DNA from: Infirmifilum sp.
GTDB taxonomy: Archaea; Thermoproteota; Thermoprotei; Thermofilales; Thermofilaceae
DNA: 17,374 bases
Assembly: GCA_041287245.1 (NCBI GenBank)
Contig: JBEULP010000114.1
Coordinates: forward strand, 1-17,374
Direction of reading: 5' to 3'
This document shows, piece by piece, positions 1 through 17,374 of this stretch. The stretch's first letter is position 1; every line of letters starts with the position of its first letter. The position numbers were made by a program, and so were the translations under genes. Under the pieces are notes generated by a model. It saw nothing but the letters and a program-made list of their open reading frames with translations, was not told where the DNA came from and made no database searches.

Positions 1-708
1 TGGATGCTGGATCAAGGCGTAAACTCCTTCGAGGAGCTTAACCAAAGCGACATAGACAGGTTTGTCGAAGACGTCGGGTACACGTGGAACATTGTGACGG
101 GACTGAGAAAACTGTTCACATGGCTCGGTAGAAGCGACTTGACGATAGCCATCCCGCGCCCGCGGATACTCGAAGCTCCAACCTTCACAGTCATAGGCGA
201 GGGCGAGGTCGAGGCGCTTGCACAGAGGCTCCGCGAGGAGCGGCACAGCGAGATGTACCCGTGTGCGACCTTCCTAGCCTACTACGCGGCGCTCACGGTG
301 AGTGAGCTTGTCAGGCTTAGATGGTGGGACGTGAGGAACGGCGTGGTACACGTCAAACGCGACGTCGAGGCGGCCATTCCACTACCGGAAAAGGCGGTGG
401 CGTCGCTGGAAGCGTGGAGGCGAGAGCTGGTCACGCGGAGGGGCGCCGCCGAGCCGGGCTATATATTTCCCGGCGCAAGGGGGGGACACCTGAGCATACC
501 CGCGGCGAAGAAGACGATTGAACAGGCGGCGCGGAGGCTGGGCATGCATATCACATATACAGACATCCGGCTGAGCGGCCTGCTACGGCTGTTAAGTATG
601 GTGGAGCATAGGAGCGACCTGACGCGGCTGACTGGGCTTAAACCCTCCCGCGCCAAGGCGCTGGCAGTAGCCCTGCAAGAGGCCGCTAAACATATAGAGC
701 AGTCTTAG
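1..708 (+). CDS. Tyrosine recombinase/integrase-fold protein, probably catalytically degenerate; may be 5'-truncated
   Basis: Box I-like AYYAALTVSELVRLRWWDV, YIFPG patch, box II-like ITYTDIRLSG...LTGL. Frame is open from base 1 (TGG ATG), so the true start may lie upstream. Confidence 0.8.
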   Translation, partial: WMLDQGVNSFEELNQSDIDRFVEDVGYTWNIVTGLRKLFTWLGRSDLTIAIPRPRILEAPTFTVIGEGEVEALAQRLREERHSEMYPCATFLAYYAALTVSELVRLRWWDVRNGVVHVKRDVEAAIPLPEKAVASLEAWRRELVTRRGAAEPGYIFPGARGGHLSIPAAKKTIEQAARRLGMHITYTDIRLSGLLRLLSMVEHRSDLTRLTGLKPSRAKALAVALQEAAKHIEQS

Positions 709-736
709 TATTTTTTCTAAACCCCCGGGGTTGAAA

Positions 737-1024
737 ATGGCCAAGTGGGTTCTAACAATCGATAACGGTAGAGTAGAAGAGTATACGACGTATCAGGAGG
801 GCGTAGAGGCATTGAAAGCCGCCTTCAAAGCCGGAGCGAAGAAGATAGAACTACGTAGAGTGCTCTCTCCCAGGGAGGAGGCGCTCCAGAAGATAAGAAC
901 ATTCCTATACACGCTACCCTTCAGGATACTCTACATCCTAAGGCTTAAAAAACCAGTTATGTACTCTGAGGAGGAATGCTTCGAGGAGGATTTCTTGGTA
1001 GATAATTTATCCAGAGGAGGATAG
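737..1024 (+). CDS. Hypothetical protein with acidic C-terminal segment
   Basis: ORF (TTG 731 or ATG 737) after GGGGG RBS-like run at 726-730; followed by T-rich tract at 1049-1054. Confidence 0.7.
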   Translation: MAKWVLTIDNGRVEEYTTYQEGVEALKAAFKAGAKKIELRRVLSPREEALQKIRTFLYTLPFRILYILRLKKPVMYSEEECFEEDFLVDNLSRGG

Positions 1025-1066
1025 GATAAATTAGCCGGATAAGTTATCTTTTTTATCCCTGGTGCA

Positions 1067-1076
1067 CACAGCTGTG
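1067..1076. promoter_or_regulatory. Palindromic motif CACAGCTGTG, copy 1
   Basis: Same 10-bp palindrome at 3771, 10867 and 13219; this copy lies between convergent genes. Confidence 0.4.
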
Positions 1077-1114
1077 CGTTTCAGGAAAAATAAAGCAGAG
1101 AAAGAACAAAACCG

Positions 1115-1273
1115 TTAAAATTCTTCTTCCTCTTCAAAATCTTCTTCTTCAAATTCCTCTTCGTCGCCTTCAAACTCCTCCTCTTCCCAGAACTTTTCAA
1201 GCTCTTCGTCCTCCTCGTCCTCAAAGTCGAACTGCTCGTCTAGCTCTTCCTCACTAAACATATATGGTTTCAT
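1115..1273 (-). CDS. Small hyper-acidic protein, 52 aa (possible nucleic-acid mimic)
   Basis: Manual translation MKPYMFSEEELDEQFDFEDEEDEELEKFWEEEEFEGDEEEFEEEDFEEEEEF; minus-strand TTATAA at 1307-1312 with purine-rich BRE-like sequence; T-rich tract downstream on the minus strand. Confidence 0.7.
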   Translation of the reverse strand: MKPYMFSEEELDEQFDFEDEEDEELEKFWEEEEFEGDEEEFEEEDFEEEEEF

Positions 1274-1367
1274 CTGTGGCTCAGTAAACAACAAGCTAAG
1301 AGAGGCTTATAAGAGTTTCTACTCGCCTCCACCTTAAAAAAGTTCTAGTTTCACCGTTCAACGATAT

Positions 1368-1379
1368 TTTTTTATAAAA
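1368..1379 (+). promoter_or_regulatory. TATA box of the RHH-helicase operon
   Basis: TTTTTTATAAAA about 30-40 nt upstream of the RHH gene start. Confidence 0.5.
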
Positions 1380-1418
1380 TTTCTTTAGTAATAGAAAAAC
1401 GCCGGGGGGGTGTTGAGC

Positions 1419-1601
1419 ATGATAAGAAAGAGAGAAGAGCAGATTGTAACAGCGTCGGTCTATCTACCGCTAAGCGCGGTTCTAGCTGTGGAAAAGATAA
1501 GGAAGAAGACAGAGAAAAATAGGACGAGAATCCTCAGAGAACTCATAATCTACGCGCTGAAGAAAAGGGGGTTTATTAGAAAAAGAAAAGGGGGGTGTTG
1601 A
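1419..1601 (+). CDS. Ribbon-helix-helix (CopG-like) transcriptional regulator
   Basis: Beta strand VTASVYLP followed by two helices (LSAVLAVEKIRKKT, NRTRILRELIIYAL); basic; directly upstream of the replication helicase. Alternative starts GTG 1410 and TTG 1413. Confidence 0.7.
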   Translation: MIRKREEQIVTASVYLPLSAVLAVEKIRKKTEKNRTRILRELIIYALKKRGFIRKRKGGC

Positions 1602-1630
1602 GCCGTCTATGCGACGTCGGGTGATGCCTC

Positions 1631-3352
1631 ATGAGTGATACACAGAACCACGATAAAAACTTTTCGGTTGAGCCAGAAAGAGATGTTATAGAACTTCAAA
1701 AGGAGCTTGAGAACATAAAAGACATCTACGGAGCCGAAGTAATGAACAGGGTTGAGAGAGTACTAAACGTGTTACGGCTCGACGGCCAACTGGATATAAA
1801 GAGTATCATGCTAACCCTGGCAGAGTGGGATAAGCTCAGCATTGAGGAAAGGATCAGCTTTTTCGAGAAGATAAGGGGGAGGCTTGACGTAAAAAAACTC
1901 GCCAAGTGGTATGCACAACACGATAACAAGTATGCTGAAAGCCTGAATAAAGCAGAGGAGGAGGGTAGGGATCCGCCACTACCCCCGCCGAGCGTAGTAG
2001 CGGTATATCTTGCCACTAATTTCAACCTGTTCAAACCGGCATTCGCGAAAATAGGCGTCGAGCCGGAGTACGGCTTGATAGTAGGGAGGAGGTTCTACGA
2101 CAAGGAGTGGCTGAACCAGGCCGCGAGGGCGATTAGCACGCTGGGCGACCCGATATTGCCGTCACCAAGGGTTTTTCCACCGTTGTTAGAGGCGTTGAAG
2201 TCATATGCTGTGATGATTACGAATGATAAGATAAACTCGAAGAAATACCTGAACTTGAAGAATGGGGCTATAGAGCTGGAAACGCTGACACTACAGGAAA
2301 AACTAGAAGACTACATATTCACATATGAGCTACCCAGTATAGAGCCGGAGTTCATACGGGACTTGCGCGAGGGCCGTATCGATGAGAACTACTTTGCAAC
2401 GTCGGACTTCTACGTGGAGATACGTCCACACTACAGCGATAAGGAGTGGGAGAAGTTAAAAGCGGTTTTAGGCGCAATCCTAGTCCCAAAACCGTTAAAA
2501 TTGATCGCGATCATAGCAGGAGAGGGGGATACGCGTAAAACATTCCTGTTCACACTTATAAAGCGCACACTAGGTAAGCAGGCAGGCGCCATTGACCTAT
2601 CTGAAATGCAACAAAACCGGTTCGCGCTCATGAACCTAATCGAAGCGAGAGCAGTACTCACGAGCGAGGAGTCTAGAACAGTCATTAAGACGATAAACAA
2701 GCTGAAGCGTATAAGCGGAGGAGACCCGCTCTTCATTGACCGTAAGTTTAAACCTCCAGTCGAGATGGAGGACAATCCGTTGAAGATATACATCTTCACC
2801 AATGAGCTACCAGCTATAAAGGAGGTGGACAAGCCATTCCTCGAGCGCCTGGTAATTATACAGCCACAAGACCCACAGCCACCCGGGCCCGAGGAAATGC
2901 GACGCATAGAGCGAGCGCTTGAAAAAACAAGCGATTTCCTCAAATTCCTACTCTATTGCTACTGGGACTTGAAGAGAAAAGGCGAGGTGATACCGGGCAA
3001 GGGAAGTGCAGAATACGAGAGCATGCTGATAAGGGCACAGAACAACATTTACGCGTTCTTCGACTGGCTCAGCACGGAAGACTCGGATTACAGCATCACG
3101 TTCGGGCCAGGGCTGAAAACACCGGCCTCGGAGTTCTACGATGCCTACCTGATATTCTGCCAGAAAAAAGGACAACAGCCAATGGGTCGCAACACAGTCT
3201 ACGCATACATAGATTCAATACTGGCCGAACACGGAGTCATCAAGACGAGGGACTCGAGCGGAATAATTTTCAAAGGCGTAAAGTTGAATAAAAAAAGTAA
3301 TGTAGAATTGCGTTCAGACGAAAATACATATGGATGGGCATGGGAAGCATAA
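1631..3352 (+). CDS. Superfamily 3 helicase replication protein (D5/P4 primase-helicase C-terminal family)
   Basis: D5_N-like YLNLKNGAIELETL, Walker A-like GEGDTRKT, Walker B VLTSEE, B' KRISGGDPLFIDRKFK, motif C IYIFTNELP, arginine finger FLERLVII, C-terminal winged helix (ASEFYDAYLIFC...IFKGVKL); RBS GGGTGA at 1619-1624. Confidence 0.9.
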   Translation: MSDTQNHDKNFSVEPERDVIELQKELENIKDIYGAEVMNRVERVLNVLRLDGQLDIKSIMLTLAEWDKLSIEERISFFEKIRGRLDVKKLAKWYAQHDNKYAESLNKAEEEGRDPPLPPPSVVAVYLATNFNLFKPAFAKIGVEPEYGLIVGRRFYDKEWLNQAARAISTLGDPILPSPRVFPPLLEALKSYAVMITNDKINSKKYLNLKNGAIELETLTLQEKLEDYIFTYELPSIEPEFIRDLREGRIDENYFATSDFYVEIRPHYSDKEWEKLKAVLGAILVPKPLKLIAIIAGEGDTRKTFLFTLIKRTLGKQAGAIDLSEMQQNRFALMNLIEARAVLTSEESRTVIKTINKLKRISGGDPLFIDRKFKPPVEMEDNPLKIYIFTNELPAIKEVDKPFLERLVIIQPQDPQPPGPEEMRRIERALEKTSDFLKFLLYCYWDLKRKGEVIPGKGSAEYESMLIRAQNNIYAFFDWLSTEDSDYSITFGPGLKTPASEFYDAYLIFCQKKGQQPMGRNTVYAYIDSILAEHGVIKTRDSSGIIFKGVKLNKKSNVELRSDENTYGWAWEA

Positions 3353-5557: not shown

Positions 5558-6316
5558 ATGGAGCAATACCTTGTTACGATTGGAGTAAAGAAGTCTATAC
5601 CCCTCATCCAAGAGGTAAGTAATCGCCTACGCGCCAGGCCCGAGCCTCTATCGCTTGACATCCCCCACCGCGCCAGATCATCTTCACCGAAGGTGTTGTT
5701 CCGAATGCCCACCGGTAACTACGTGCTCATCAACTCCTTTGAACCCTCCGTTTTTTCAAAACCTGGCAACAGGATTCTACTCAGTGGCCCCTGGGTGAAG
5801 ATTCCCATCTCACTCGCCGAGCCGCTAAGCCTCGAGGATCTCGGCATCATGAAGCCGAGAGCCACTACGCCGGCGGCGCGTGCAGTCATAGTAGACTACT
5901 ACTTTACGGCGAAGACCCTCATCCCACAGCTTAGAGAACAGATAGAGACGTTGCAGATGGAGCTTAGAGAGGAGCGCGAGCTGGCGAACAGGGCGCTCGC
6001 CGTCGCGGCGAGTGTGCGCACTTTGTCCAGCATCCTATCCGGGTTCAGCCCAGAGCAGATATCAGAGATAGCCGGCGACGTCAAAGTACTCTTAAACCGC
6101 GTCCAGGAGCTTCAGCTGGCCGTCGAGGCTACAGCCGACAAGATATTAGCTGAGATCAGGGGCGCGAAGCTTAAACTCGAAGCCGGGGACAGGGAGGGCG
6201 TCAAAGAGGCGCTGGATAGGGCGGAACGCATGGCGGCTGAGCTACCCAGCTTCGCCGCTAACAACCCGTGGCTAGAGATAATTATGAAGGGAGCACAGGA
6301 GAGGCGAAGAGGGTAG
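5558..6316 (+). CDS. Hypothetical coiled-coil protein
   Basis: 252 aa; beta-rich N-terminal half, heptad-rich C-terminal half; TATA-like TTTTATATTA about 25 nt upstream. Confidence 0.8.
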   Translation: MEQYLVTIGVKKSIPLIQEVSNRLRARPEPLSLDIPHRARSSSPKVLFRMPTGNYVLINSFEPSVFSKPGNRILLSGPWVKIPISLAEPLSLEDLGIMKPRATTPAARAVIVDYYFTAKTLIPQLREQIETLQMELREERELANRALAVAASVRTLSSILSGFSPEQISEIAGDVKVLLNRVQELQLAVEATADKILAEIRGAKLKLEAGDREGVKEALDRAERMAAELPSFAANNPWLEIIMKGAQERRRG

Positions 6317-6571: not shown

Positions 6572-6952
6572 ATGGCTAGGAGCCTCAACCTAGAACTCAG
6601 GAAGCTGGTGCTTCACTACTACCTCATTGGACACAACACCAGGATGATAGTTGACCGTATAGCCGCGCAGACTGGGAGGCGCTACTCCATGAGTTACATC
6701 CGCAAACTCATCTGGCAGATGAGGAAGGAGGGCCTGCTTGCAAAGCCACCGTCCTCCGGGCTCTGGGGCGAGCTTGAGGTGTGGATCCGCTCGAGTAAGA
6801 CACATGCATACAGCGCGCTGGAGGCTGTGAAGGCCGGGGACTTGAAGACTGCTACCGTTGAACTCGAAGCCGTCCTCGAGAGGCTTGAGAGGGCCCAGAA
6901 CACTTACAAGGCGCTCTACCTTGGCTACACCGGCGTAAGAGTGATGCGTTAG
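6572..6952 (+). CDS. HTH DNA-binding protein with C-terminal helical hairpin
   Basis: LVLHYYLIGHNTRMIVDRIAAQTGRRYSMSYIRKLIWQMRKEGLL fits a helix-turn-helix pattern; TATA-like TTTATA at 6529-6534. Confidence 0.7.
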   Translation: MARSLNLELRKLVLHYYLIGHNTRMIVDRIAAQTGRRYSMSYIRKLIWQMRKEGLLAKPPSSGLWGELEVWIRSSKTHAYSALEAVKAGDLKTATVELEAVLERLERAQNTYKALYLGYTGVRVMR

Positions 6953-7909: not shown

Positions 7910-8098
7910 ATGTCTGAGGCACAGTCAGGTTGGCTTCAACTGGTATTGGCGTGGTTTGTAGGGTTTGCCGCCGGGGTTGGAGCGGCTTGGGTACTCTCCC
8001 GTAGGAAGAGGATCAGCATTATCTACGCGCCACCGGTCGAGCTGGCGCCCGCGGGGTATGAGCAGGTCGACATTTATGCTGGGAGGTGGGGTGGATGA
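7910..8098 (+). CDS. Small single-pass membrane protein
   Basis: WLQLVLAWFVGFAAGVGAAWVL followed by SRRKR; TATA-like CTTATATT at 7877; ATGA overlap with next gene. Confidence 0.7.
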   Translation: MSEAQSGWLQLVLAWFVGFAAGVGAAWVLSRRKRISIIYAPPVELAPAGYEQVDIYAGRWGG

Positions 8099-8808
8099 GT
8101 AGTAAAGAGGTAGTTGATGAGGACGTCTTGAAGGGTATAGCCGCGGTAGTACTCGACGCTGTGAACTCGGAACTCGCCAAGGTGCTGACACCGCTTGAGC
8201 GTCGCGTCCAGGAGCTACAGCAACGTCAGGACAAGCTTGCGGCCGAGCTTGCCTCCGTCAGGGAGGCGACTGCAAAGGTCGCGATGGACACGGCGGCCGA
8301 GTTCGTCAAACAGGTCGTCCAGGCGGCGATAAAGGGTAGCGAGGAGAGCATGAAGGGACGCATCGAAGTAGCCACGGAGCCTGTGATCTCAAGGCTGAAC
8401 GCCTTGGAGTCCAGGATAAACAACATCGAACACCTCCTAGAGTCTGCAGGACGGGATCTAGGGGAGGCTGTTGCCGCCGCTACGGCCGAGGTTCAAAAGG
8501 CTGGCGAGGAGGCTGTGAAGCGCATCGAGGAGAGCGCCGCCGCGGTGTCTGGGTATAAACAGGATCTAGAGAAGATTTTACGCACGGTCGAGTCGATGAA
8601 GCTCGCCTTGGATGGTATAGTGAAGGCACAGGCGAGGATGGCTACGAAGGAAGACCTCGCGCAAATCACCCAGTTGAGGAATAGCATCTACGAGCTTATG
8701 ACCTCGATGGACGCGCTCCGACGCCGCCTGGAGGCGCTTGAGAAACAGGTAAGCCGTAGGCGTGGCGGAGGCGGTGAGGAAGAGGAGGGAGGAGAGGTAG
8801 AGATGTAG
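8095..8808 (+). CDS. Long coiled-coil protein
   Basis: Continuous heptad pattern, acidic Gly/Glu tail; ATG 8095 after GGAGGTGGGGTGG. Confidence 0.8.
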   Translation: MSSKEVVDEDVLKGIAAVVLDAVNSELAKVLTPLERRVQELQQRQDKLAAELASVREATAKVAMDTAAEFVKQVVQAAIKGSEESMKGRIEVATEPVISRLNALESRINNIEHLLESAGRDLGEAVAAATAEVQKAGEEAVKRIEESAAAVSGYKQDLEKILRTVESMKLALDGIVKAQARMATKEDLAQITQLRNSIYELMTSMDALRRRLEALEKQVSRRRGGGGEEEEGGEVEM

Positions 8809-8818
8809 GTGAGACCCA

Positions 8819-9775
8819 GTGGGCTACGTGCTCCATCTGACGCCAGAGGACATTATAGCCAGGGCTAGGGCCCAGCTCACTGCTAAGCAGTTACCCTCGG
8901 TTATTCTGAGGCCAGCTGGAACCGGTAGCTCTCTCTACGGGGTCTTCGTTAAGGTCGAGGGCATCGGCATTATCGGGCAGTACATTGGCCACATCGAGTA
9001 CACAGTCTCAGGCCCCGACGGCCCCGAGGAGATGTGGGAGATAACATATGGCTACACCGAGCTGTTCGCACGCATCGACTCGGCCAGCGCCACAGTGTTC
9101 ATACCGGTCGCCTTCGGCGCGATGAGTAAGACCGCCCGGCGGCTCATCGAGGCTGAGAGGCCCCCGCTTTACGAGCACAAGGAGGTGCGTGGCTCGATCA
9201 CCGTGCCGAAACGCGCACTCGTAAACCTTGACGACGTGATGGCCGGCCGGGACTTCGTGCTCCGCGTCGACCCCTACGGCGTCACAGTCCCCACCGACAT
9301 ACGAGAGCGCGCGGCCGAGCTTGGCAGGCAACTCGAAGTGGTGCGCCGGGCCTACACCCTGCTACAGAGGGAGTACGAGCGGGAACGCTCCAGGCGGGAG
9401 GTAGCCGAGGCACAGCTCGCCAGCCTACTCTCAGTCCACGAGGAGCTTAAAGGCAGGCTCGCCACGACCGAGGCCACCGTTAGGAGCGCGGAGACCATGC
9501 TACTTGACATGCGCTCACGGATCTCAGCCCTCTCCACAAGGGTCGCGACTGAACGCGAACTGAGAGAACAGCTGGCCAGCATCACAGAGGATCTCGCCGC
9601 CTCCATCGAGACCGCCCGTAAGGCCCTCGCCGCCGCCAGGACGCTGATATCGGAGGCCGTGGAGGCGGTGGGGCAACAGCCCGAGGAGAAGCCTGAGGAG
9701 AAAGAGGAGAAAGGGAAGCCGCCACCACCACAGGAGGAGAAGCCTGAGGAGAGAGAGGAGGGTGAGGCGAAGTGA
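8819..9775 (+). CDS. Protein with beta-rich N-terminal domain, long coiled coil and acidic Pro-rich tail
   Basis: 318 aa; RBS AGGTGA; tail PEEKPEEKEEKGKPPPPQEEKPEE. Confidence 0.8.
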   Translation: MGYVLHLTPEDIIARARAQLTAKQLPSVILRPAGTGSSLYGVFVKVEGIGIIGQYIGHIEYTVSGPDGPEEMWEITYGYTELFARIDSASATVFIPVAFGAMSKTARRLIEAERPPLYEHKEVRGSITVPKRALVNLDDVMAGRDFVLRVDPYGVTVPTDIRERAAELGRQLEVVRRAYTLLQREYERERSRREVAEAQLASLLSVHEELKGRLATTEATVRSAETMLLDMRSRISALSTRVATERELREQLASITEDLAASIETARKALAAARTLISEAVEAVGQQPEEKPEEKEEKGKPPPPQEEKPEEREEGEAK

Positions 9776-10377
9776 GTGAGAGCAGGAGGCTTAGCGACCT
9801 CTCTCTCTTCGAGCTTTACACGCTACTCGTAAAGGAGTTCGCCACCGGTGGCGACGACCCGCTCGCCAGGGAGCGCATGTCACGGATAGCAGGTGAGATG
9901 ATCCTTAAGGTGCTACAGCTACAGCCCTCCGTTCCAGAGGGCAACCCCAGGCTTACACAGACGTTTCTAGCGAGGTTCTCCGAGGCGGTCTCCGGCCTCG
10001 TCTCATCGCTCACACACCTCCAAGTCGACCTGGAGAGCGCTACTAGGAGGGTGGTCAGGGAGAGGATCTCGGAGATTGGCGCACAGCTGGGAGTACTCGC
10101 CACGCTATCCAAAGCCCCCGTCAAAGCCCCGCTGGGAGGCCTCGCATCACGCGTCGACGTCAGTAGCCTCGCACAACAGCTGGGAGGCACGCCCGCCAGG
10201 GTCTACAGCTACGTCATAACCGTCGGCAGGGCCTCATCCCGTATGCTCTCACAGTGGGCCTCCGCGCTCAACATCCCCCTGGAGGAGCTTGAGGCGTCTC
10301 TGACGGAGCTTGTAAGCCGTGGCCTGCTCAGGGTGGAGGCTAGGGGTGGAGAGCTAGAGTATATCCCAGGTGAGTAA
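9772..10377 (+). CDS. Helical protein with C-terminal winged-helix domain
   Basis: C-terminus ARVYSYVITVGRASSRMLSQW...LEELEASLTELVSRGLLRVEARGGELEY fits a wHTH; GTGA overlap. Confidence 0.75.
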   Translation: MSESRRLSDLSLFELYTLLVKEFATGGDDPLARERMSRIAGEMILKVLQLQPSVPEGNPRLTQTFLARFSEAVSGLVSSLTHLQVDLESATRRVVRERISEIGAQLGVLATLSKAPVKAPLGGLASRVDVSSLAQQLGGTPARVYSYVITVGRASSRMLSQWASALNIPLEELEASLTELVSRGLLRVEARGGELEYIPGE

Positions 10378-10711
10378 CGTGATCGAGATAGAGCTGTACC
10401 TCCTAGAGGGTTGTCCACACTGTGAACGTATGACACGCATCATCGAGACCTGTGACGCCCTCCTAGCCGAAGGCGTCAGGTTCAAGGTGTTCGAGTCTAT
10501 CACAGGCCCCCTCATCAGGGGCTTCACAGGCTCCCCGCCGATGGCGAAGTTCGGCATCAACGCGGTGCCCCAGGTCGTGATACGTGCGCGCCACGGCTCA
10601 AGGACGGCTGAGATAGTCCTCATCGGGGGGCCGGGTGACGCGGACAGGAGGGATGTCTGCCAGGCGCTTGTAGACGCCGCCCGTACGCTCAAGGCGGCTG
10701 TGGAACGTTAA
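10370..10711 (+). CDS. Thioredoxin/glutaredoxin-fold protein
   Basis: IELYLLEGCPHCERM active-site motif and cis-Pro loop FGINAVPQVVI. Confidence 0.8.
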   Translation: MSNVIEIELYLLEGCPHCERMTRIIETCDALLAEGVRFKVFESITGPLIRGFTGSPPMAKFGINAVPQVVIRARHGSRTAEIVLIGGPGDADRRDVCQALVDAARTLKAAVER

Positions 10712-10750: not shown

Positions 10751-11095
10751 ATGTATGAGTTGCTTGCAGTCGCCACAGGTAGCGCGGGGGCCGGCTACAT
10801 CCTAGGCTGGGCCCTCCGCAAGCTTATAGGCGTCCTGGAAACTGTTGTCGCACTCTACGTGGGTGCCACAGCTGTGCTAGTCTACGTCGGCGTCCTATCC
10901 GTCAACGTATCCGCGCTTACATCCCTTTTATCACGCCTAACCTCCCTCTTCTCAGAATACGCGCCCCAGGTAGCCTCCCTCCTCGCCAGTAGCGCTACGC
11001 TCGGCCCGTTCGCGATCGGCTTCGCCCTCGGCTTCTTCAAGCCCCACGCCACCGCCTCGGAAGGCTCCTTCGACAGCCCCTACCTAGAAGAGTAG
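10751..11095 (+). CDS. FUN14-like membrane protein with C-terminal SPYLEE tag
   Basis: GYILGWALRKL...LVYVGVLSVN...GPFAIGFALGF pattern matches my recollection of archaeal FUN14 proteins; ends FDSPYLEE. Confidence 0.7.
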   Translation: MYELLAVATGSAGAGYILGWALRKLIGVLETVVALYVGATAVLVYVGVLSVNVSALTSLLSRLTSLFSEYAPQVASLLASSATLGPFAIGFALGFFKPHATASEGSFDSPYLEE

Positions 11096-11126
11096 CTTTT
11101 ATTACCGTGTTACGTGTTTTTTCCAC

Positions 11127-11687
11127 GTGACCCGTAAACAGCCCGAGGAATACACCAAGTACTGGTCTATGAGCGCCAGGGTATATGCGGAGCGTAGGGA
11201 GGAGGGGCTGGCCGAGCGGCTCGCAGCCATGGCCGCCAGCACCCACGCGCTCGCCGGCGCGCTTATAGTCGCCAATATTTTCAACGTGTTGCAACTCATC
11301 CCGGAGTTCTGGGACGCGCTCTCACGCTTCTCAGAGATAGCCCTACTCCCGCCCGACGTCATCCGTGCACGGTACCCCGAGTTGTACAACGGCCTCATCC
11401 TAGCCTCCAGCCTCTCCACAACCGCGCATATACTCTTCGAAGTGGCGTACTCCTCGGCTAGGCGTCAGTTCATGCCGGTGTTCACAGGCGTCTGGAGGTT
11501 CGCCTTCGCCGCGTTCTTCGTCTTCGCATTGATCACGAACGCCCTGGCGGCCATCCTCATAAAGACCCCGGCGGCCATCCTCAACACTGCAATCCTAACT
11601 GTTTCAATGCCGTTCGCCTTCAACAGCCGGTACGACCGGATCAGCGAAGAAGTGAACAAGATACGTACGACGGGTGGCGGGGTATGA
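11127..11687 (+). CDS. Multi-pass membrane protein
   Basis: About four hydrophobic segments; GTG about 23 nt after TTTTATTA (11097-11104); ATGA overlap with the CPBP gene. Confidence 0.75.
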   Translation: MTRKQPEEYTKYWSMSARVYAERREEGLAERLAAMAASTHALAGALIVANIFNVLQLIPEFWDALSRFSEIALLPPDVIRARYPELYNGLILASSLSTTAHILFEVAYSSARRQFMPVFTGVWRFAFAAFFVFALITNALAAILIKTPAAILNTAILTVSMPFAFNSRYDRISEEVNKIRTTGGGV

Positions 11688-12310
11688 ACCTACCCGGCCT
11701 GTTAGTGGCAGTAGTCCTCTACTCCATCCTGGCGGCCATTGGCGAGATGATACTCTGGCACAAGTGGAAGTCCCTCACAGAATCAGGAGTGCAACCCGTA
11801 TTCCCCCTCTCAACACGCCACACCATACCCCTCCCCATCGACCGTAAAAGCACCACGGCCGCCGCTGCAGAGGTAGTGGCGCTCTGGCCCGCGGTCGAGG
11901 AGGCTGTTTACCGCATCGTGCCATACCTCGCCGCCGGGCTACCCGGTGCGGTTGCGATGGTGCCGGTCTGGGCCTTCACCCACGCGGCGAAGTTCTACGA
12001 GTATAACAGGCACCTCCCGGACAAGGTGTACATGGACTTCCTCAAGGTTTACCTTGCCTCCCTCTCACTCATAGGCATGGGACTCGCCCTCTCCATACCC
12101 CTCTCCGGAGAGCTGTGGATACCCATACCCCTCCACATGGCCACGAACTACGCGGCCCTCCAGTCGCTCAGACGCCTGGCCGAGCCCCCGAAGAAGCCAC
12201 AATTCCTGAGGCAGACCACGCAACCCCGGAGGCCCAATCAGGGCACAGCGTCACGCCCCGTGTTCAAGTCCGCGGGCGTTGGCAGGGTCAGGACTGAATA
12301 CCTCGACTGA
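11684..12310 (+). CDS. CPBP family (Rce1/Abi, type II CAAX) intramembrane glutamic endopeptidase
   Basis: Motifs PAVEEAVYR (EExxxR), WAFTH (FxxxH-like) and PLHMATN (HxxxN) in a multi-pass membrane protein; ends TEYLD. Confidence 0.85.
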   Translation: MNLPGLLVAVVLYSILAAIGEMILWHKWKSLTESGVQPVFPLSTRHTIPLPIDRKSTTAAAAEVVALWPAVEEAVYRIVPYLAAGLPGAVAMVPVWAFTHAAKFYEYNRHLPDKVYMDFLKVYLASLSLIGMGLALSIPLSGELWIPIPLHMATNYAALQSLRRLAEPPKKPQFLRQTTQPRRPNQGTASRPVFKSAGVGRVRTEYLD

Positions 12311-12356
12311 ACAGGCAAGCTGAACACCTCTAAGGGCCGGGGAGAAAGTCGGAGAT

Positions 12357-12376
12357 AAAAACTTATTAACAAGTTT
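12357..12376 (+). promoter_or_regulatory. BRE/TATA promoter within an inverted repeat
   Basis: AAAACTT-ATTAAC-AAGTTTT; TTATTAA about 25 nt before ATG 12394. Confidence 0.5.
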
Positions 12377-12393
12377 TCCAAATTAGATACTCG

Positions 12394-12801
12394 ATGGCTA
12401 CGGAACAATTAAAAGGGCTTATAATACCACTGGCTCTGATAATCATAACCGCACTACTCTACGCCAGCGGCGTCCCACTCGGCCTCGCGGCGGCAATCGT
12501 GCTCGGAGCCTCCGCAATCGTACTCACAGTCGAGTTCCTCAAAGCTAAGGGAATAATCAACGAATCATCGTATTGGAGCGCTCTACTGCTCGGCGAGGGC
12601 CTGCTCCTCCTCCTCGCCGCTCTCTCCGCTAAAGGCATAATCCCCCTCTCAGTCGCGATAACCGGTGACCCGCTGATCGACGCCTTCATCACCAGCACCA
12701 TCGCGGCTGTGGTAGGTGTCACCGCGGCGTACTTCCTACCGAGGCTCTACGGCAAGGTCACCGGCGAACCAGAGGTGTACAGCAGTCCCTACCTTGAATG
12801 A
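12394..12801 (+). CDS. Four-TM membrane protein with C-terminal SPYLE tag
   Basis: Four hydrophobic segments; ends EVYSSPYLE. Confidence 0.8.
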   Translation: MATEQLKGLIIPLALIIITALLYASGVPLGLAAAIVLGASAIVLTVEFLKAKGIINESSYWSALLLGEGLLLLLAALSAKGIIPLSVAITGDPLIDAFITSTIAAVVGVTAAYFLPRLYGKVTGEPEVYSSPYLE

Positions 12802-12811
12802 GGTGCCCGGG

Positions 12812-13192
12812 TTGCCCCAAGGCACCGGGCTAAAAATTTTTTCTAACGCTTCCCTAGCCCTCCTACTCCTAATAATAGCTGCCTCGCTACTCCCATCCTC
12901 ACCATCCTTCGCGCTACTCCTCGGCCTCATCGCGGTAGACCCCCTCCTCGACGTGTGGCGCTACTCCTCGGGTAAAACACAGCATGGCTTCATAGCGTTT
13001 GTCCTCGAAGTAGCCAGCGCCGCGTCTGCAATGGTGATCATGGCCTTCGCCCTACTCTACCTTACATACACCTACCTCCCCCTAGCCCTCCTACTCATCT
13101 CCATAGCGGCCCTCGACGCATCCATATCCTTCCAAGAGGCCGCTGAGATGTTAATGTCGCCCAGCAGCCCCAGCAGTCCCTATTTGGAGTAA
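12812..13192 (+). CDS. Four-TM membrane protein with C-terminal SPYLE tag
   Basis: Start most likely TTG 12812 (RBS GAGGTG at 12800-12805) or GTG 12803 rather than 12716; ends PSSPSSPYLE. Confidence 0.8.
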   Translation: MPQGTGLKIFSNASLALLLLIIAASLLPSSPSFALLLGLIAVDPLLDVWRYSSGKTQHGFIAFVLEVASAASAMVIMAFALLYLTYTYLPLALLLISIAALDASISFQEAAEMLMSPSSPSSPYLE

Positions 13193-13213
13193 AAAAGGTA
13201 TTTTTTCTCTCTG

Positions 13214-13233
13214 TTATGCACAGCTGTGCATAA
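13214..13233. promoter_or_regulatory. Perfect 20-bp palindrome TTATGCACAGCTGTGCATAA (operator or activator site)
   Basis: Exact self-complementarity; lies after an oligo-T tract and upstream of the BRE/TATA-like GAAAAAATCATTAAG of the subtilisin gene. Confidence 0.65.
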
Positions 13234-13277
13234 AACAAAGCGAAAAAATCATTAAGAACCCAACCCCACTCTTTCTT

Positions 13278-14336
13278 GTGGAATACTGGCAACTCATAAC
13301 AATAGCCCTTGTAGCCCTCATCGCGCTTCTACCCCTATCCACCCCGCCACAGCCACACCTACAGCCCCGCGTCGTCATCATGCCCCTCTACCAGGCGCAA
13401 GGCGCCGTGGCGCTTAGAGACGTCTACGGCGTGAGCAGGTACACCGGCGCCGGCGTCCGCGTAGCCGTGGTAGACACCGGGGTCGACTATACACACCCAG
13501 ACCTCTCCGGGGCCGTAGAAGCGCTTGTAAGCTTCGTCGCAACAACCAAGGACGGCGCCCCGCTCGTATGGTTTGTAGGCGTAAACGGATCCCTAGGCGA
13601 CGCCAGGAGGTTTGACGAGTACGTCAAGTCCCAGGTGGGGTTCTACGCGTGGCTTGACGAGCACGGCCACGGCACCCACGTCGCAGGCATCATAGCCGGC
13701 AACGGAGTGCTTAGCGGGGGGCGCTACGCCGGCCTCGCGCCTAACGCGAAGATCTGGGCCGTGAAGATTCTAGGCGCGCAGGGCGCAGGCTCGATCGATA
13801 CGCTGGTGAAGGCCCTACGCTGGCTCGCGGATCAACCCGTCGACATAGTAAACCTCGCGCTCGGGCTCAACGCGCCGCCCCCGGATAGCCTTAGAGATGC
13901 AGTAGCGCTACTCGCCTCGAAGGGGAAGATCGTGGTCGCGGCAGCCGGTAACAGTGGCGTCATCGGGGCTGTTGAATACCCGGCCAGGTACCCGTCCGTC
14001 ATAGCTGTGGCGGCTGTGGACGCGTCGGGGCTGAGGGCGTCGTTCTCGGCTATGGGGCTCCCCAGCGACTGGAAGCCGGACTTCGCCGCCCTCGGCGTCA
14101 ACGTGGTCAGCACGCTTCCAACGTATCAATGCACGCTTGGAAGAGGCCCCTACGCCGCCCTCTCCGGTACGAGTATGGCGACCGCTGTGGCGAGCGGAAT
14201 CCTTGCACTATGGCTTGAAGCAGTTGGCCCCCAGGCCCGCGACAAGGTATTCCTCGCCGCGTCGGCCTCCATACCTGCTAGCCCCGTGGCGTATAAGACC
14301 CTGGTACTGGGGTACGGGATCCTACTCCCCCCTTAG
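13278..14336 (+). CDS. Subtilisin-like serine protease (peptidase S8) with N-terminal signal/anchor
   Basis: Catalytic triad motifs VAVVDTG, HGHGTHVAG, GTSMAT and oxyanion AAAGNSG; hydrophobic N-terminus. Confidence 0.95.
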   Translation: MEYWQLITIALVALIALLPLSTPPQPHLQPRVVIMPLYQAQGAVALRDVYGVSRYTGAGVRVAVVDTGVDYTHPDLSGAVEALVSFVATTKDGAPLVWFVGVNGSLGDARRFDEYVKSQVGFYAWLDEHGHGTHVAGIIAGNGVLSGGRYAGLAPNAKIWAVKILGAQGAGSIDTLVKALRWLADQPVDIVNLALGLNAPPPDSLRDAVALLASKGKIVVAAAGNSGVIGAVEYPARYPSVIAVAAVDASGLRASFSAMGLPSDWKPDFAALGVNVVSTLPTYQCTLGRGPYAALSGTSMATAVASGILALWLEAVGPQARDKVFLAASASIPASPVAYKTLVLGYGILLPP

Positions 14337-14375
14337 CGCAATGCTTTTATTTATGTGTTTCAACATTTTTCTGTG

Positions 14376-15092
14376 ATGATGAGAAAAATAATACTTGTGA
14401 TAATGGCCCTATTGGCGGTTTTCGTAACCGCCTCCGCGGTTGCCACCCCGCTCACCGTAAATATTAAACTCACAACCCCGTACACCAAATACTACGTCTA
14501 CACGGCCACCACGCTCGCCGCACAGGGCAACATCACCAGCAACACGTTCACCCTCAACTACAACAACACACAGTCCTACCTCGTCAAGGCAGTCGGAAAC
14601 AATACCGTTCTCGTGTTCACCATACCCAGCGGCCTCACCACGACCAGCTTCAACGTGACCACAGTCGCGACGGTTACGTTCAACACCACCTTCCTCGGCA
14701 AGTGGCCGTTCGCCCCCAAGAGCGTCCAGGCACAGGTCGCGCCGAGCGGAGCCCCCTGCAACGCGACGGTAGCCACGTCCGACGTGGTGAACATCGTGCC
14801 CCCTGCAAAAGTCAAGCTCCAGAAGGAAGTCTTCTACCCGGCGATCTACGGCTACAGGCTCTCAGCCATCTACGTCAACGGCGCCACCAGCACCAACCCC
14901 TTCAACGTGACCAGTAGCATAACCTACAGCGTCAAGGCCGAGTACGAGCCCGTAGGGATGGCCGCCATCGACCCGCTTGTAGTCGTGGCGGTGGTCGCGG
15001 CCATAGTGGTATTCGCAATAGTCCTAGCCGCGAAGAAGGGCGGCTCCGCCGCGATGGCTGTTAAGGCGTACAACAGCCCCTACCTCGAGTAA
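14376..15092 (+). CDS. Thr-rich exported surface protein with C-terminal TM anchor and SPYLE tag
   Basis: Signal peptide MRKIILVIMALLAVFVTASAVA, beta-rich body with seven N-x-T sequons, TM helix, KK, tail AYNSPYLE. Confidence 0.85.
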   Translation: MMRKIILVIMALLAVFVTASAVATPLTVNIKLTTPYTKYYVYTATTLAAQGNITSNTFTLNYNNTQSYLVKAVGNNTVLVFTIPSGLTTTSFNVTTVATVTFNTTFLGKWPFAPKSVQAQVAPSGAPCNATVATSDVVNIVPPAKVKLQKEVFYPAIYGYRLSAIYVNGATSTNPFNVTSSITYSVKAEYEPVGMAAIDPLVVVAVVAAIVVFAIVLAAKKGGSAAMAVKAYNSPYLE

Positions 15093-15102
15093 GGTGCACT
15101 TA

Positions 15103-15555
15103 ATGCCACGTCTTTTTCTACTCGTCCCCGCTGAGGTAAAGGAGATACTCGGCAACCTATCAGACCGTATAGACACAGACCCAGTGCTAGGCAAGAAGGT
15201 GAAGGGCACCGGCCTGGAGCTAAGGAAGCTCGCCGAACCCGCCGCGTCAGCGTGCGCCCGTAGCCCCAAGGTGCGCGACAACGTCGACAGGGCCGGCGCG
15301 TGGCTCGCCTGCATGGACGAGGTGCTCGGCAAGGCCGCCGAGCTGTTAAACAAGGGCGTCCCGCTCGAAGACCCCCAGTTCGACGCGGAGGTAGACGGTA
15401 GCAACATCGCCCTACGCCAGGCCGTCAAGCCGTTCTACGACGCGTGTAAAAACAACACAGCCAGGGTTTTACAAGACCCCGAGGAGGACGCGAGGCTCTG
15501 CACAGTCCACGCGTTAACCGCTACGAGGCTACGGCTCAAGGAGCTGTTCTCCTAA
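15103..15555 (+). CDS. Hypothetical helical protein with four Cys
   Basis: ATG 15103 after AAGGTG RBS (GTG 15094 alternative). Confidence 0.7.
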   Translation: MPRLFLLVPAEVKEILGNLSDRIDTDPVLGKKVKGTGLELRKLAEPAASACARSPKVRDNVDRAGAWLACMDEVLGKAAELLNKGVPLEDPQFDAEVDGSNIALRQAVKPFYDACKNNTARVLQDPEEDARLCTVHALTATRLRLKELFS

Positions 15556-15997
15556 CCGCCAGCCTCAACTCCCTAACCGAGAATCCCTCTTTCTCCAACC
15601 CTGAAGCCAGCCTGTAGAGATCCCCGTCATCACGGGCCTCAGCCCTCAAGGCCCACGGCCCGTCAACCTCAGCCTTCACCCCGCACCCCTCCACGGAGAG
15701 GTCGAGGCTGTGCCCAACCCTACTAAACTTGACCCTCACCTTGCCACAGTACTTCTTCAACGCCGCGGCGACACCCCCAGCTGTGAGCAACTCCGCGCCA
15801 AACCCGTAGGCCACCGGGTCGCCCTCCGACCTACCGTCCAGCCACAGGGTCGCCGACCTACCCGGCCCGGCGGCGACGATCAAACAGCCGGCCCCAACCT
15901 CGGCCCATAGCCCCGCCGCCCCCGCTATCTTCAACGCCGACTCCACGGCCGCCCTGCTCGGGGAGCGGGGCCGTAGCAGGTAGACCGTTGAAGCCAC
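15536..15997 (-). CDS. Hypothetical protein
   Basis: 153-aa minus-strand ORF; GTG about 24 nt from minus-strand TTTATATA (16021-16028); fills the gap between + strand genes. Confidence 0.7.
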   Translation of the reverse strand: MASTVYLLRPRSPSRAAVESALKIAGAAGLWAEVGAGCLIVAAGPGRSATLWLDGRSEGDPVAYGFGAELLTAGGVAAALKKYCGKVRVKFSRVGHSLDLSVEGCGVKAEVDGPWALRAEARDDGDLYRLASGLEKEGFSVRELRLAVRRTAP

Positions 15998-16018
15998 AAC
16001 TTATCCCCGTGGACGCTA

Positions 16019-16030
16019 CTTATATAAATT
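16019..16030. promoter_or_regulatory. Bidirectional TATA box
   Basis: CTTATATAAATT roughly equidistant from the minus-strand start at 15997 and the plus-strand ATG at 16052. Confidence 0.6.
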
Positions 16031-16051
16031 CCCCCGGTCGTGAAATTCTTG

Positions 16052-16324
16052 ATGGATGAAGATGTTACCTCTCTGTTAAAAGAATTTGTGTTACGTAAGA
16101 CCGAGGAGCGCCCGCTCACGCTCACCGCGAGGCGTATAAAGAGGCTGGCCAGGGAACTCGCCGGCGAGCAGATCGACACCATATCGGCCCGGCGGCTCCT
16201 AGACCAAATCCTCGAAGAGGCGCGCGACAACAGGCGCATATTTATACGCACCGCGAAGACCGGCGCGCGAACAGTCACGGTGGCGCCATCATGGCTGGAC
16301 AGCCCGTACTTGGACGTGGAGTAG
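16052..16324 (+). CDS. Small winged-helix-like protein with C-terminal SPYLDVE
   Basis: Helix, LTLTARRIKRL, helix ARRLLDQILEE, wing IFIRTAKTGARTVTV; ends WLDSPYLDVE. GTG 16040 is an alternative start. Confidence 0.7.
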   Translation: MDEDVTSLLKEFVLRKTEERPLTLTARRIKRLARELAGEQIDTISARRLLDQILEEARDNRRIFIRTAKTGARTVTVAPSWLDSPYLDVE

Positions 16325-16704
16325 CCGACGAGCTACTCTACCTCGTGGCAAACCTCCTCGCCCTCGAGGAGCACCTGTTCGAACTCGGAGACCTCGAAGC
16401 CGCAAGGCACGTGCGCGAAGCGAGGAGGGACGCGGTCGACAGGCTCTCGCTAATCCTAGCCGGCAAGCCCGCCTCCGAGACACGCCTCAAGGCGACGTGG
16501 TGCGCGTTGAAACACGCGTTGCTCGCCTGGTACCACGCGTACGAGGCGGCCCTCGCCACGGGCGACTTCGAGCTTGCCGGCCTCTCCAAGGGCCTCTTCG
16601 GCGCCGCCCAGCAGATCCTAGACGATACCTTTAAAGCCGGGGACACGGAGGTTAAAAAAGGTGGCGCAGTTGCGGAGGGAGAAGAGGGAGAAGGAGAGGC
16701 GTGA
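16291..16704 (+). CDS. Hypothetical helical-bundle protein, possible metal ligands
   Basis: NLLALEEH and WCALKHALLAWYHAYE motifs; GGTGG RBS upstream; acidic tail. Confidence 0.7.
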   Translation: MAGQPVLGRGVADELLYLVANLLALEEHLFELGDLEAARHVREARRDAVDRLSLILAGKPASETRLKATWCALKHALLAWYHAYEAALATGDFELAGLSKGLFGAAQQILDDTFKAGDTEVKKGGAVAEGEEGEGEA

Positions 16705-16786: not shown

Positions 16787-16836
16787 CCCCCGGAAGATAG
16801 AAAAGCTAATAAACACTTAAACCGTAATCCTAGTTG

Positions 16837-17374
16837 ATGAAGAAGAAAATCATAGGTCTGGTTACAGCCGCACTAATCCTACTAGCCCTCTTCCTCGCCG
16901 CAACCCCAAGGCACCCGTCCCAGCTCAACGCCGGCGTCGAAGTACCCACCACAGTCGCAGTCCAAGTCCAAGTCGTCAGGAACGGCAAGGTCGTAGCCAC
17001 GTACGAGAAGGTCGGAGACCCACTCCTCTACAACTTCTGGGCCCTGCTGCTGAACAGCTTCCTCGGCCGCTACTACAACTCGCCCCTCACCATCTACAAG
17101 ACCGACGGGACGACGTTCACCCAGCCCGAGTGGGAGTGGCTCAACTCTCCCGGAACCACCCCTGTGTACGGCAACCCGTTGCTGGCTATCGGCTACGGCA
17201 CCAGTAGCCAAGCCGTTAGTTTCTACGACTACCAGCTGGGCGGGTACGCCACCTTGGCTGACGTGCCCTCCACCGGCTACAATTTAGTCGTGAACTCTTC
17301 GCACATGGTGGTTCAGGCGACCGCGTCGTTCACAGTATCCACCGCCGTGACTGTAAACGAGGTGGGGCTCTACT
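16837..17374 (+). CDS. Exported or membrane-anchored structural protein with tail-collar-fibre-like motifs (3'-truncated)
   Basis: Manual translation, open to window end: MKKKIIGLVTAALILLALFLAA...VQVVRNGKVV...LAIGYGTSSQAVSFYDYQL...VTVNEVGLY. Absent from the ORF track because there is no stop in the window. Confidence 0.8.
   Translation, partial: MKKKIIGLVTAALILLALFLAATPRHPSQLNAGVEVPTTVAVQVQVVRNGKVVATYEKVGDPLLYNFWALLLNSFLGRYYNSPLTIYKTDGTTFTQPEWEWLNSPGTTPVYGNPLLAIGYGTSSQAVSFYDYQLGGYATLADVPSTGYNLVVNSSHMVVQATASFTVSTAVTVNEVGLY

Follow-up and report, generated by a model that had tools for sequence, protein, structure and literature searches.

In this study, we analysed a 17,374-bp stretch of DNA (hereafter the window), which is the entire contig C26 (JBEULP010000114.1) of the Infirmifilum sp. 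assembly GCA_041287245.1 (genome G000; 1.81 Mb, 119 contigs, 5% contamination) and belongs to a mobile element. We show here that unrelated proteins encoded by this element carry one genuine shared tag, SPYLE in the window, which is selected at the protein level, is private to the element, changes in concert and is replaced in distant relatives. We propose, with a probability of about 0.6, that the tag is a cytoplasm-facing docking label, with a single element-encoded partner as its predicted reader. A previous sequence-only reading had interpreted the shared ends as a docking or processing signal that gathers the element's proteins, and overall this interpretation is partly supported.

Tagged proteins of the window

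Six motifs had been reported from the window, and all six were verified in position and codons; like all genes of the window described below, they lie on the forward (+) strand. The tag reads DSPYLEE (11072..11095) at the end of a FUN14-like membrane protein (gene 10751-11095; PF04930), orthologs of which are also tagged. A tail-motif scan gave SSPYLE on the four-helix membrane protein TMa (12781..12801; gene 12394-12801) and on the three- to four-helix membrane protein TMb (13172..13192; gene about 12803-13192), NSPYLE past the C-terminal anchor of a surface protein (15072..15092; gene about 14379-15092) and DSPYLDVE on a soluble protein of 94 amino acids (aa), which is winged-helix-like by eye only and has no Pfam, PHROG or NCBIfam match (16298..16324; gene 16040-16324). 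A degenerate version, TEYLD (12293..12310), ends a CPBP/Rce1-like intramembrane protease (gene 11684-12310; PF02517, E 2.8e-4, just under the cut-off). Four helices had been assigned to both TMa and TMb; this holds for TMa, but a hydropathy scan gave three for TMb, which probably starts at 12803 or 12812. In the tagged membrane proteins the order is membrane helix, basic residues, spacer and tag, and from the basic residues after the last helix the tag is predicted to face the cytoplasm.

The carriers are indeed non-homologous, as had been claimed: once the tails are removed the proteins are dissimilar (blastp best E 0.36), and their profiles align only the tag or nothing. The tag is also restricted to the element, host C-termini being nearly free of it. 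Of the 5092 closed frames of at least 80 aa in the genome, five have PYL[ED] within three residues of the stop, all of them on the window contig, and a six-frame search for SPYL[ED] gave nine matches genome-wide, the four non-tag matches being two internal to long open reading frames (ORFs) and two in short frames (14 and 26 aa). With a relaxed pattern, 7 of 5252 ORFs were found, namely five window tags, one host protein and a large anchored surface protein on contig C47, which ends in SSPYFEYLRR, a sixth tag variant. A loose pattern was rare in the host, with 2 hits among 538 membrane ORFs and 9 among 1644 ORFs.

Selection at the protein level was likewise borne out, since synonymous codons vary, tags shift in parallel and the motif is found in frame solely at the ends of genes. 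Across the tags Leu is encoded by all six of its codons, Pro by three and Ser by four. The tag Ser is AGY in 6/6 copies of the window genome and in 24/28 overall, compared with a background of 32–45% AGY; this excess may reflect a common origin of the tags by copying, which leaves the parallel changes unexplained.

Concerted change in close relatives

Relatives were collected with a profile of a 318-aa protein encoded upstream of the tagged genes. It gave 30 homologs, which were narrowed to 13 metagenomic loci, 10 of them extending at least to the FUN14 gene; its true matches amounted to 2 of 120 genomes of the class and 3 of 401 of the phylum, the other matches being coiled-coil noise. Six metagenomic loci (L093, L097, L098, L100, L104 and L105) were tabulated with the window, and L095, L096, L099 and L101 were left out as near copies and L094, L102 and L103 as too short. 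As had been expected, the same non-homologous proteins are tagged in relatives with the same gene order. The literal motif [DSN]SPYL[ED] is not what is conserved; the conserved trait is one shared tag per element, the sequence of which shifts between elements. The tag is SPYLE in the window, SPF[LI][ES] in L093, S[EP]WLE in L097 and L100, SEWVE in L098, xEWxE in L104 and xKWLE in L105, and the CPBP orthologs carry SMYLE, EDWLE, SDWVE and NEYVE, 0–24 residues before their ends.

Tag identity was tested on 29 tags from five families and six elements, with L100, CPBP and the extra surface proteins dropped; it is 0.775 within an element (56 pairs) versus 0.486 between orthologs (70 pairs), and none of 20,000 within-family shuffles reached the within-element value. 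The tail-less trees of all six genes pair the window with L093, L097 with L100 and L104 with L105, and therefore the module moves as a unit and the changes of the tag are parallel changes in separate genes. Between the window and L093, Tyr is replaced by Phe in 5/5 tags, compared with 9 of 74 other Tyr sites. The orthologs of L104 and L105 are 77–94% identical, and only 7 of 237 Glu residues of L104 are Lys in L105; four of the seven are the tags of FUN14, TMa, TMb and the surface protein (4/6 tags when CPBP and the 94-aa protein are counted, p 4e-6), while two other Glu-Trp sites are unchanged. Avoidance of a restriction site was ruled out as the cause of this switch, as GAGTGG is still present in L105. 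In the opposite direction, Lys is replaced by Glu at 2 of 210 Lys residues, and these two are adjacent in the ortholog of a 150-aa protein of the window. In L098 the 94-aa protein has an old SPVLD followed by the new WVE.

Replacement of the tag in distant relatives

Contig C8 of genome G039 holds the same module in nearly the same gene order, with a different tag. RRxL[RTE] is found in the first 25 or last 40 residues of 13 of 16 membrane ORFs and of none of 11 soluble ORFs on this contig, compared with 9 of 538 host membrane ORFs of G000. Three of these tags are N-terminal, ahead of a membrane helix; thus the claim of a C-terminal tag stands for the window and its close relatives, but the tag is not strictly C-terminal. 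In the circular plasmid pTPEN01 of Thermofilum pendens (NC_008696.1) the place of the tag is taken by a beta-strand tail, three membrane proteins ending in KKRLGEVEVVLE, KKRREELVIEIG and KRLKEGLEIVVG (background 1/538), and similar tails occur in G013 and G020. The nine FUN14 homologs encoded on chromosomes all stop directly at KKG or KVG (L010, which is not a FUN14 gene, and L003, which belongs to the G039 element, were excluded); they are tagless, as predicted earlier, and therefore the tails were added to the element copies.

Several further features of these distant modules were observed. The anchored surface proteins of G039 have Ig-like repeats and reach 3,252 aa; between L014 12143 and L015 5161 on C8, two surface proteins (3,252 and 1,087 aa) that contain both Ig-like and carboxypeptidase-regulatory repeats are tagged. 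In G378 (contig C4, L091 2-1504) the module includes a radical SAM gene and the gene of a single-ring AAA+ ATPase that resembles Cdc48/VCP. The CPBP tails of L092 (4662-5387) and L122 (4296-5015) contain a motif like FVK(R/A/S)K three times, possibly a fourth type of tag.

Alternative explanations

Of the alternatives, taken in falling order of probability, the first is that the tag is a processing or degradation signal, which is read by the element's own CPBP protease or by an AAA+ unfoldase and is then removed or triggers turnover. A CPBP gene is present in every version of the module, pTPEN01 included, a Cdc48-like ATPase is encoded in that of G378, and proteases of the CPBP family are described as processing C-terminal sorting signals (10.1101/2023.06.07.544157). 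Many tags lie 0–1 residues from the stop, and a protease encoded by the element would account for concerted change just as well. However, the tag follows the membrane helix by 10–20 residues rather than preceding it as in tripartite signals, it lies 0–8 residues from the end, and N-termini in G039, a soluble protein and the protease itself carry it too. Furthermore, CPBP has undergone no charge swap in the opposite direction between L104 and L105. We therefore consider this explanation unlikely; tags at either end, beside basic-flanked helices and on a soluble protein, fit cytoplasmic docking better than cleavage.

The tag could also be imagined as a shortened helix of the arcadin-2 type, through which the membrane proteins of the element would be tied to crenactin, the actin of the host. 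Crenactin is encoded in the host genome (NF053560), and the gene downstream of it, which we take from its position to be arcadin-2 (NCBIfam gave no name), ends in PDFIKGNPWLNVL. Crenactin is bound by the last 17 residues of arcadin-2, a Trp among other hydrophobic residues making the contact (PMC5173319). An element protein of the window (5558..6316), which ends in LPSFAANNPWLEII, has the same C-terminal motif as the host gene beside crenactin, and the arcadin-2-type motif LP(S/D)FxxxNPW is also found in L093, L097, L100, L102, L105, L091 and pTPEN01 (8952-9350). The element thus encodes a full copy of the motif itself, and SEWLE, SPWLE and SPYFEYLRR resemble NPWLxxL. However, NPW is constant in 4/4 hosts and 7/7 element proteins, while the tags of the same elements drift (Y/F/W, P/E/K). 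The tags do not match the full motif, (L/V)PxFxxxNPW plus a second hydrophobic turn, but have an aromatic core only, which varies between elements, and most end before the second turn; moreover, crenactin is also present in genomes with RRxLR and beta-strand tags. Taken together, this makes the tag very improbable as a crenactin ligand, although the product of ORF 5558-6316 is itself a predicted crenactin binder and a candidate mobile-element regulator of archaeal actin. Two host helix–turn–helix-like proteins encoded outside the crenactin cluster of G000 (C64:15903-16592 and C86:23125-23496) also end in the NPW motif, suggesting a wider set of putative crenactin binders.

A third possibility is that the reader is another host protein, acting in insertion, as a scaffold or as a protease, which differs between host species, so that the tags track the host. 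The metagenomic relatives have no assigned hosts, which favours this possibility and counts against the reader that we propose, and homologs of the 318-aa protein are labelled in NCBI as Infirmifilum, Thermofilum, Thermofilaceae, Thermosphaera and Fervidicoccaceae, a spread over several genera that likewise favours a host reader. Host proteins are, however, hardly tagged, though a host sorting system would be expected to use its own tag, and we give this explanation little credence. Finally, the reading of the shared ends as a feature of the DNA, whether a site of recombination, a converted repeat or a ribosome-binding site that overlaps the end of the gene, can practically be set aside: the AGY bias of Ser makes a common DNA origin plausible, but as the force that maintains the tags such a feature is largely refuted by the six Leu and three Pro codons, by Ser codons that include TCC and TCG, by the lack of any repeat family over the tags among the 20 listed, by differing DNA downstream of the tags and by a motif that is in frame and at gene ends only.

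A proposed docking label and its predicted reader

Unrelated proteins changing one motif together points to one common partner. We place this partner on the element because a fixed host reader would hold the tag still, and because the NPW motif serves as an internal control, remaining constant in the same elements in which the tags drift. According to the proposed docking mechanism, the reader would, on the inner side of the membrane, bring surface proteins, membrane proteins and one protein predicted to bind DNA together in a single membrane patch or particle, and the product might be an enveloped particle or vesicle carrying the element DNA, or a cell-contact patch. The anchored Ig-like surface proteins, the subtilase described below and the coiled-coil proteins of the module are compatible with an envelope or a contact patch.

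As the reader itself, one comparison of elements tentatively suggests the 150-aa protein, a soluble helical protein with four conserved Cys residues (15103..15555), because its ortholog underwent the opposite charge swap (K to E) between L104 and L105, the only K-to-E changes between the two. No known family and no solved relative was found for it, and the ESM Atlas gave no usable family. Alternative readers or scaffolds may be encoded in a conserved untagged block (7910..10711). It encodes a 62-aa single-helix protein, a 240-aa coiled-coil protein, the 318-aa protein (beta-domain plus coiled coil), a 201-aa protein (helical plus winged-helix) and a thioredoxin-like protein. The predicted model of the 318-aa protein is good (pLDDT 81); a fold search matched only its coiled coil and barely covered the N-terminal domain. 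For this protein, as for the 150-aa protein, the ESM Atlas gave no usable family, and matches to the dynein linker in these searches, at 0.88, were below the trust line.

A number of points weigh against docking on an element-encoded reader. The call of the 150-aa protein as reader comes from one element pair and two residues; the protein was not found in pTPEN01-type genomes (0/3), its homology is weak in G039 (profile probability 5%) and G378 (E 0.018), and the Lys-rich loop of the G378 candidate would stand opposite basic tails, a mismatch in charge complementarity. The CPBP and 94-aa tags did not take the E-to-K switch between L104 and L105. The tags were located with a pattern applied to the last 40 residues, two of them by hand, in elements that are kin; the RRxL and beta-tail patterns derive from the same data in which they were counted, and the RRxL background comes from another genome (G000). 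Finally, neither capsid, packaging ATPase nor conjugation genes were found with Pfam and PHROG among the 29 window proteins of this partly assembled element, nor with Pfam among 55 proteins of relatives, and scans of viral contigs gave no related element but only one 15-residue chance match and generic subtilases. The particle step is therefore without direct support.

The most elaborate version of the docking proposal, a private coat-and-cargo system of a family of elements from hot-spring archaea, is in our view rather doubtful. In it, a small reader and tagged envelope and DNA-binding proteins would form a membrane particle that contains DNA but no known capsid, host actin would be engaged through the arcadin-2 mimic, and tag and reader would change together. 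If this were true, related elements would be barred from each other's machinery.

The element and its other genes

By its content of a tyrosine integrase (cut at the 5′ end), a ribbon–helix–helix protein and an SF3/D5-type helicase (1..3352; Pfam and PHROG scans), the window is a mobile element. No att site or tRNA was found in the window. Contig C47 has genes in common with related elements and a 141-bp overlap with contig C109, and 16 of the 19 genome copies of the palindrome CACAGCTGTG are on C17, C26, C47 and C109 (5+4+5+2). On the basis of the shared palindrome, the overlap and the shared genes, these four contigs are probably one element of at least 33 kb, and the palindrome is likely to be an operator of it. 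In the window it stands at 1067, 3771, 10867 and 13219, frequently 3′ of a T-run and 5′ of a gene. On C47, the large surface protein with the sixth tag (L107, 2-2823) is followed by a second integrase, and the contig also encodes a Holliday-junction resolvase. A stretch of 37–51 bp of the window is matched on contig C86, upstream of genes at both sites.

Two proteins encoded among the tagged ones are untagged in the window. The module comparison showed that the positional counterpart of a three-helix membrane protein (11127..11687) is tagged in G039, and that a membrane-anchored subtilase (13278..14336; Pfam) is tagged there at its N terminus. The subtilase has a subfamily-specific insert (WxVGVNG) that was found only in these elements, with G000 the only match among the 401 genomes searched. 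Downstream of the tagged genes, a conserved EEH...WCxxKH protein (16291..16704, true start probably near 16324) is by homology a marker common to pTPEN01-type elements, and the contig end truncates a further surface protein, of which only the start is present as an ORF (16834..17374). The EEH...WC protein has chromosomal homologs in the genus (L031, L032, L033, L035 and G000:C69:32410), which by eye often lie beside a TatC-like gene and an ABC transporter. In pTPEN01 (27627-28309), L029 and L030, three small conserved proteins (64–72 aa, two with Cys pairs) are encoded beside the EEH gene and are possible structural proteins.

Comparison with known systems

Short C-terminal signals shared by unrelated surface proteins are well established in the tripartite systems (LPXTG, PEP-CTERM, PGF-CTERM, MYXO-CTERM and CGP-CTERM), which are served by sortases including myxosortases of the CPBP family. 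The element shows a further likeness in that a CPBP/Rce1-like protease is encoded with the tagged proteins, though its cognate role is only a candidate one. In tripartite signals the protein ends in a basic cluster, with the membrane helix before it and the signature before the helix (10.1101/2023.06.07.544157); in the element the tag comes after the helix and the basic residues and lacks a Cys. Unlike tripartite signals, it is also found on polytopic and soluble proteins, stands at N-termini in G039 and is specific to the element. That the tag is not PGF-CTERM-like, as stated earlier, is confirmed by this reversed order and by the NCBIfam sorting-domain models, which had no match in the 23 proteins scanned, 13 of them tagged.

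The arcadin-2 helix (PMC5173319; PDB 5LY3) is likewise a short C-terminal motif with an aromatic residue after the N-cap, and the host has its partner crenactin. However, the arcadin-2 motif is invariant, while the element tags drift in concert and mostly lack its second half.

Judged from its genes, the window element carries the markers of a pTPEN01-like integrative plasmid, of which it is a distant relative. The integrase, CPBP, FUN14, thioredoxin-like, EEH/WC and NPW-motif proteins are common to both, pTPEN01 has homologs of the window ORFs at 6572, 7398 and 16291, and its anchored surface proteins likewise have a shared tail. Apart from the beta-strand form of that tail, pTPEN01 differs in having a DEAD-box helicase instead of the SF3 helicase and in giving no match to the 318-aa protein or the subtilase subfamily.

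The crenarchaeal Cdv/ESCRT-III operon encodes CdvA, CdvB and CdvC. The module has a superficial likeness to it in the order of a beta-domain plus coiled-coil protein, a helical plus winged-helix protein and, in G378 only, an AAA+ ATPase. No match to CdvA or the Snf7/ESCRT-III core was listed in Pfam and PDB sequence searches, and the fold search with the 318-aa protein, filled by its coiled coil, barely covered the N-terminal fold; the window has no Vps4-type ATPase, and the best 60 solved matches of the G378 ATPase are of the VCP/Cdc48 type and its relatives. An ESCRT/Cdv identity of the module is thus not supported.

We found no publication on SPYLE tags in archaea, on pTPEN01 or on this system, subscription papers mostly and supplements wholly lying outside the search. 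Sorting signals in cytoplasmic tails, with a coat or scaffold as their reader, are a hallmark of eukaryotes and of their enveloped viruses; we found none described for archaea, and the tag of this mobile element is a candidate for one. The natural tag variants provide a built-in specificity experiment, L104 and L105 differing by one charge in four tags, and the question is testable in a cultured host, as Thermofilum pendens carries the relative pTPEN01. In addition, through the arcadin-2-like motif that they carry, the same mobile elements are candidates for engaging archaeal actin. The tails of enveloped-virus glycoproteins, eukaryotic coat and PDZ motifs, encapsulin targeting peptides and the T4 capsid-targeting sequence are likewise short terminal peptides that unrelated proteins have in common and that a single scaffold or coat reads. 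To these the tags are linked by analogy only, no link of sequence or family having been found, and they differ from them in that tag and presumed reader are here private to each element lineage and are replaced.

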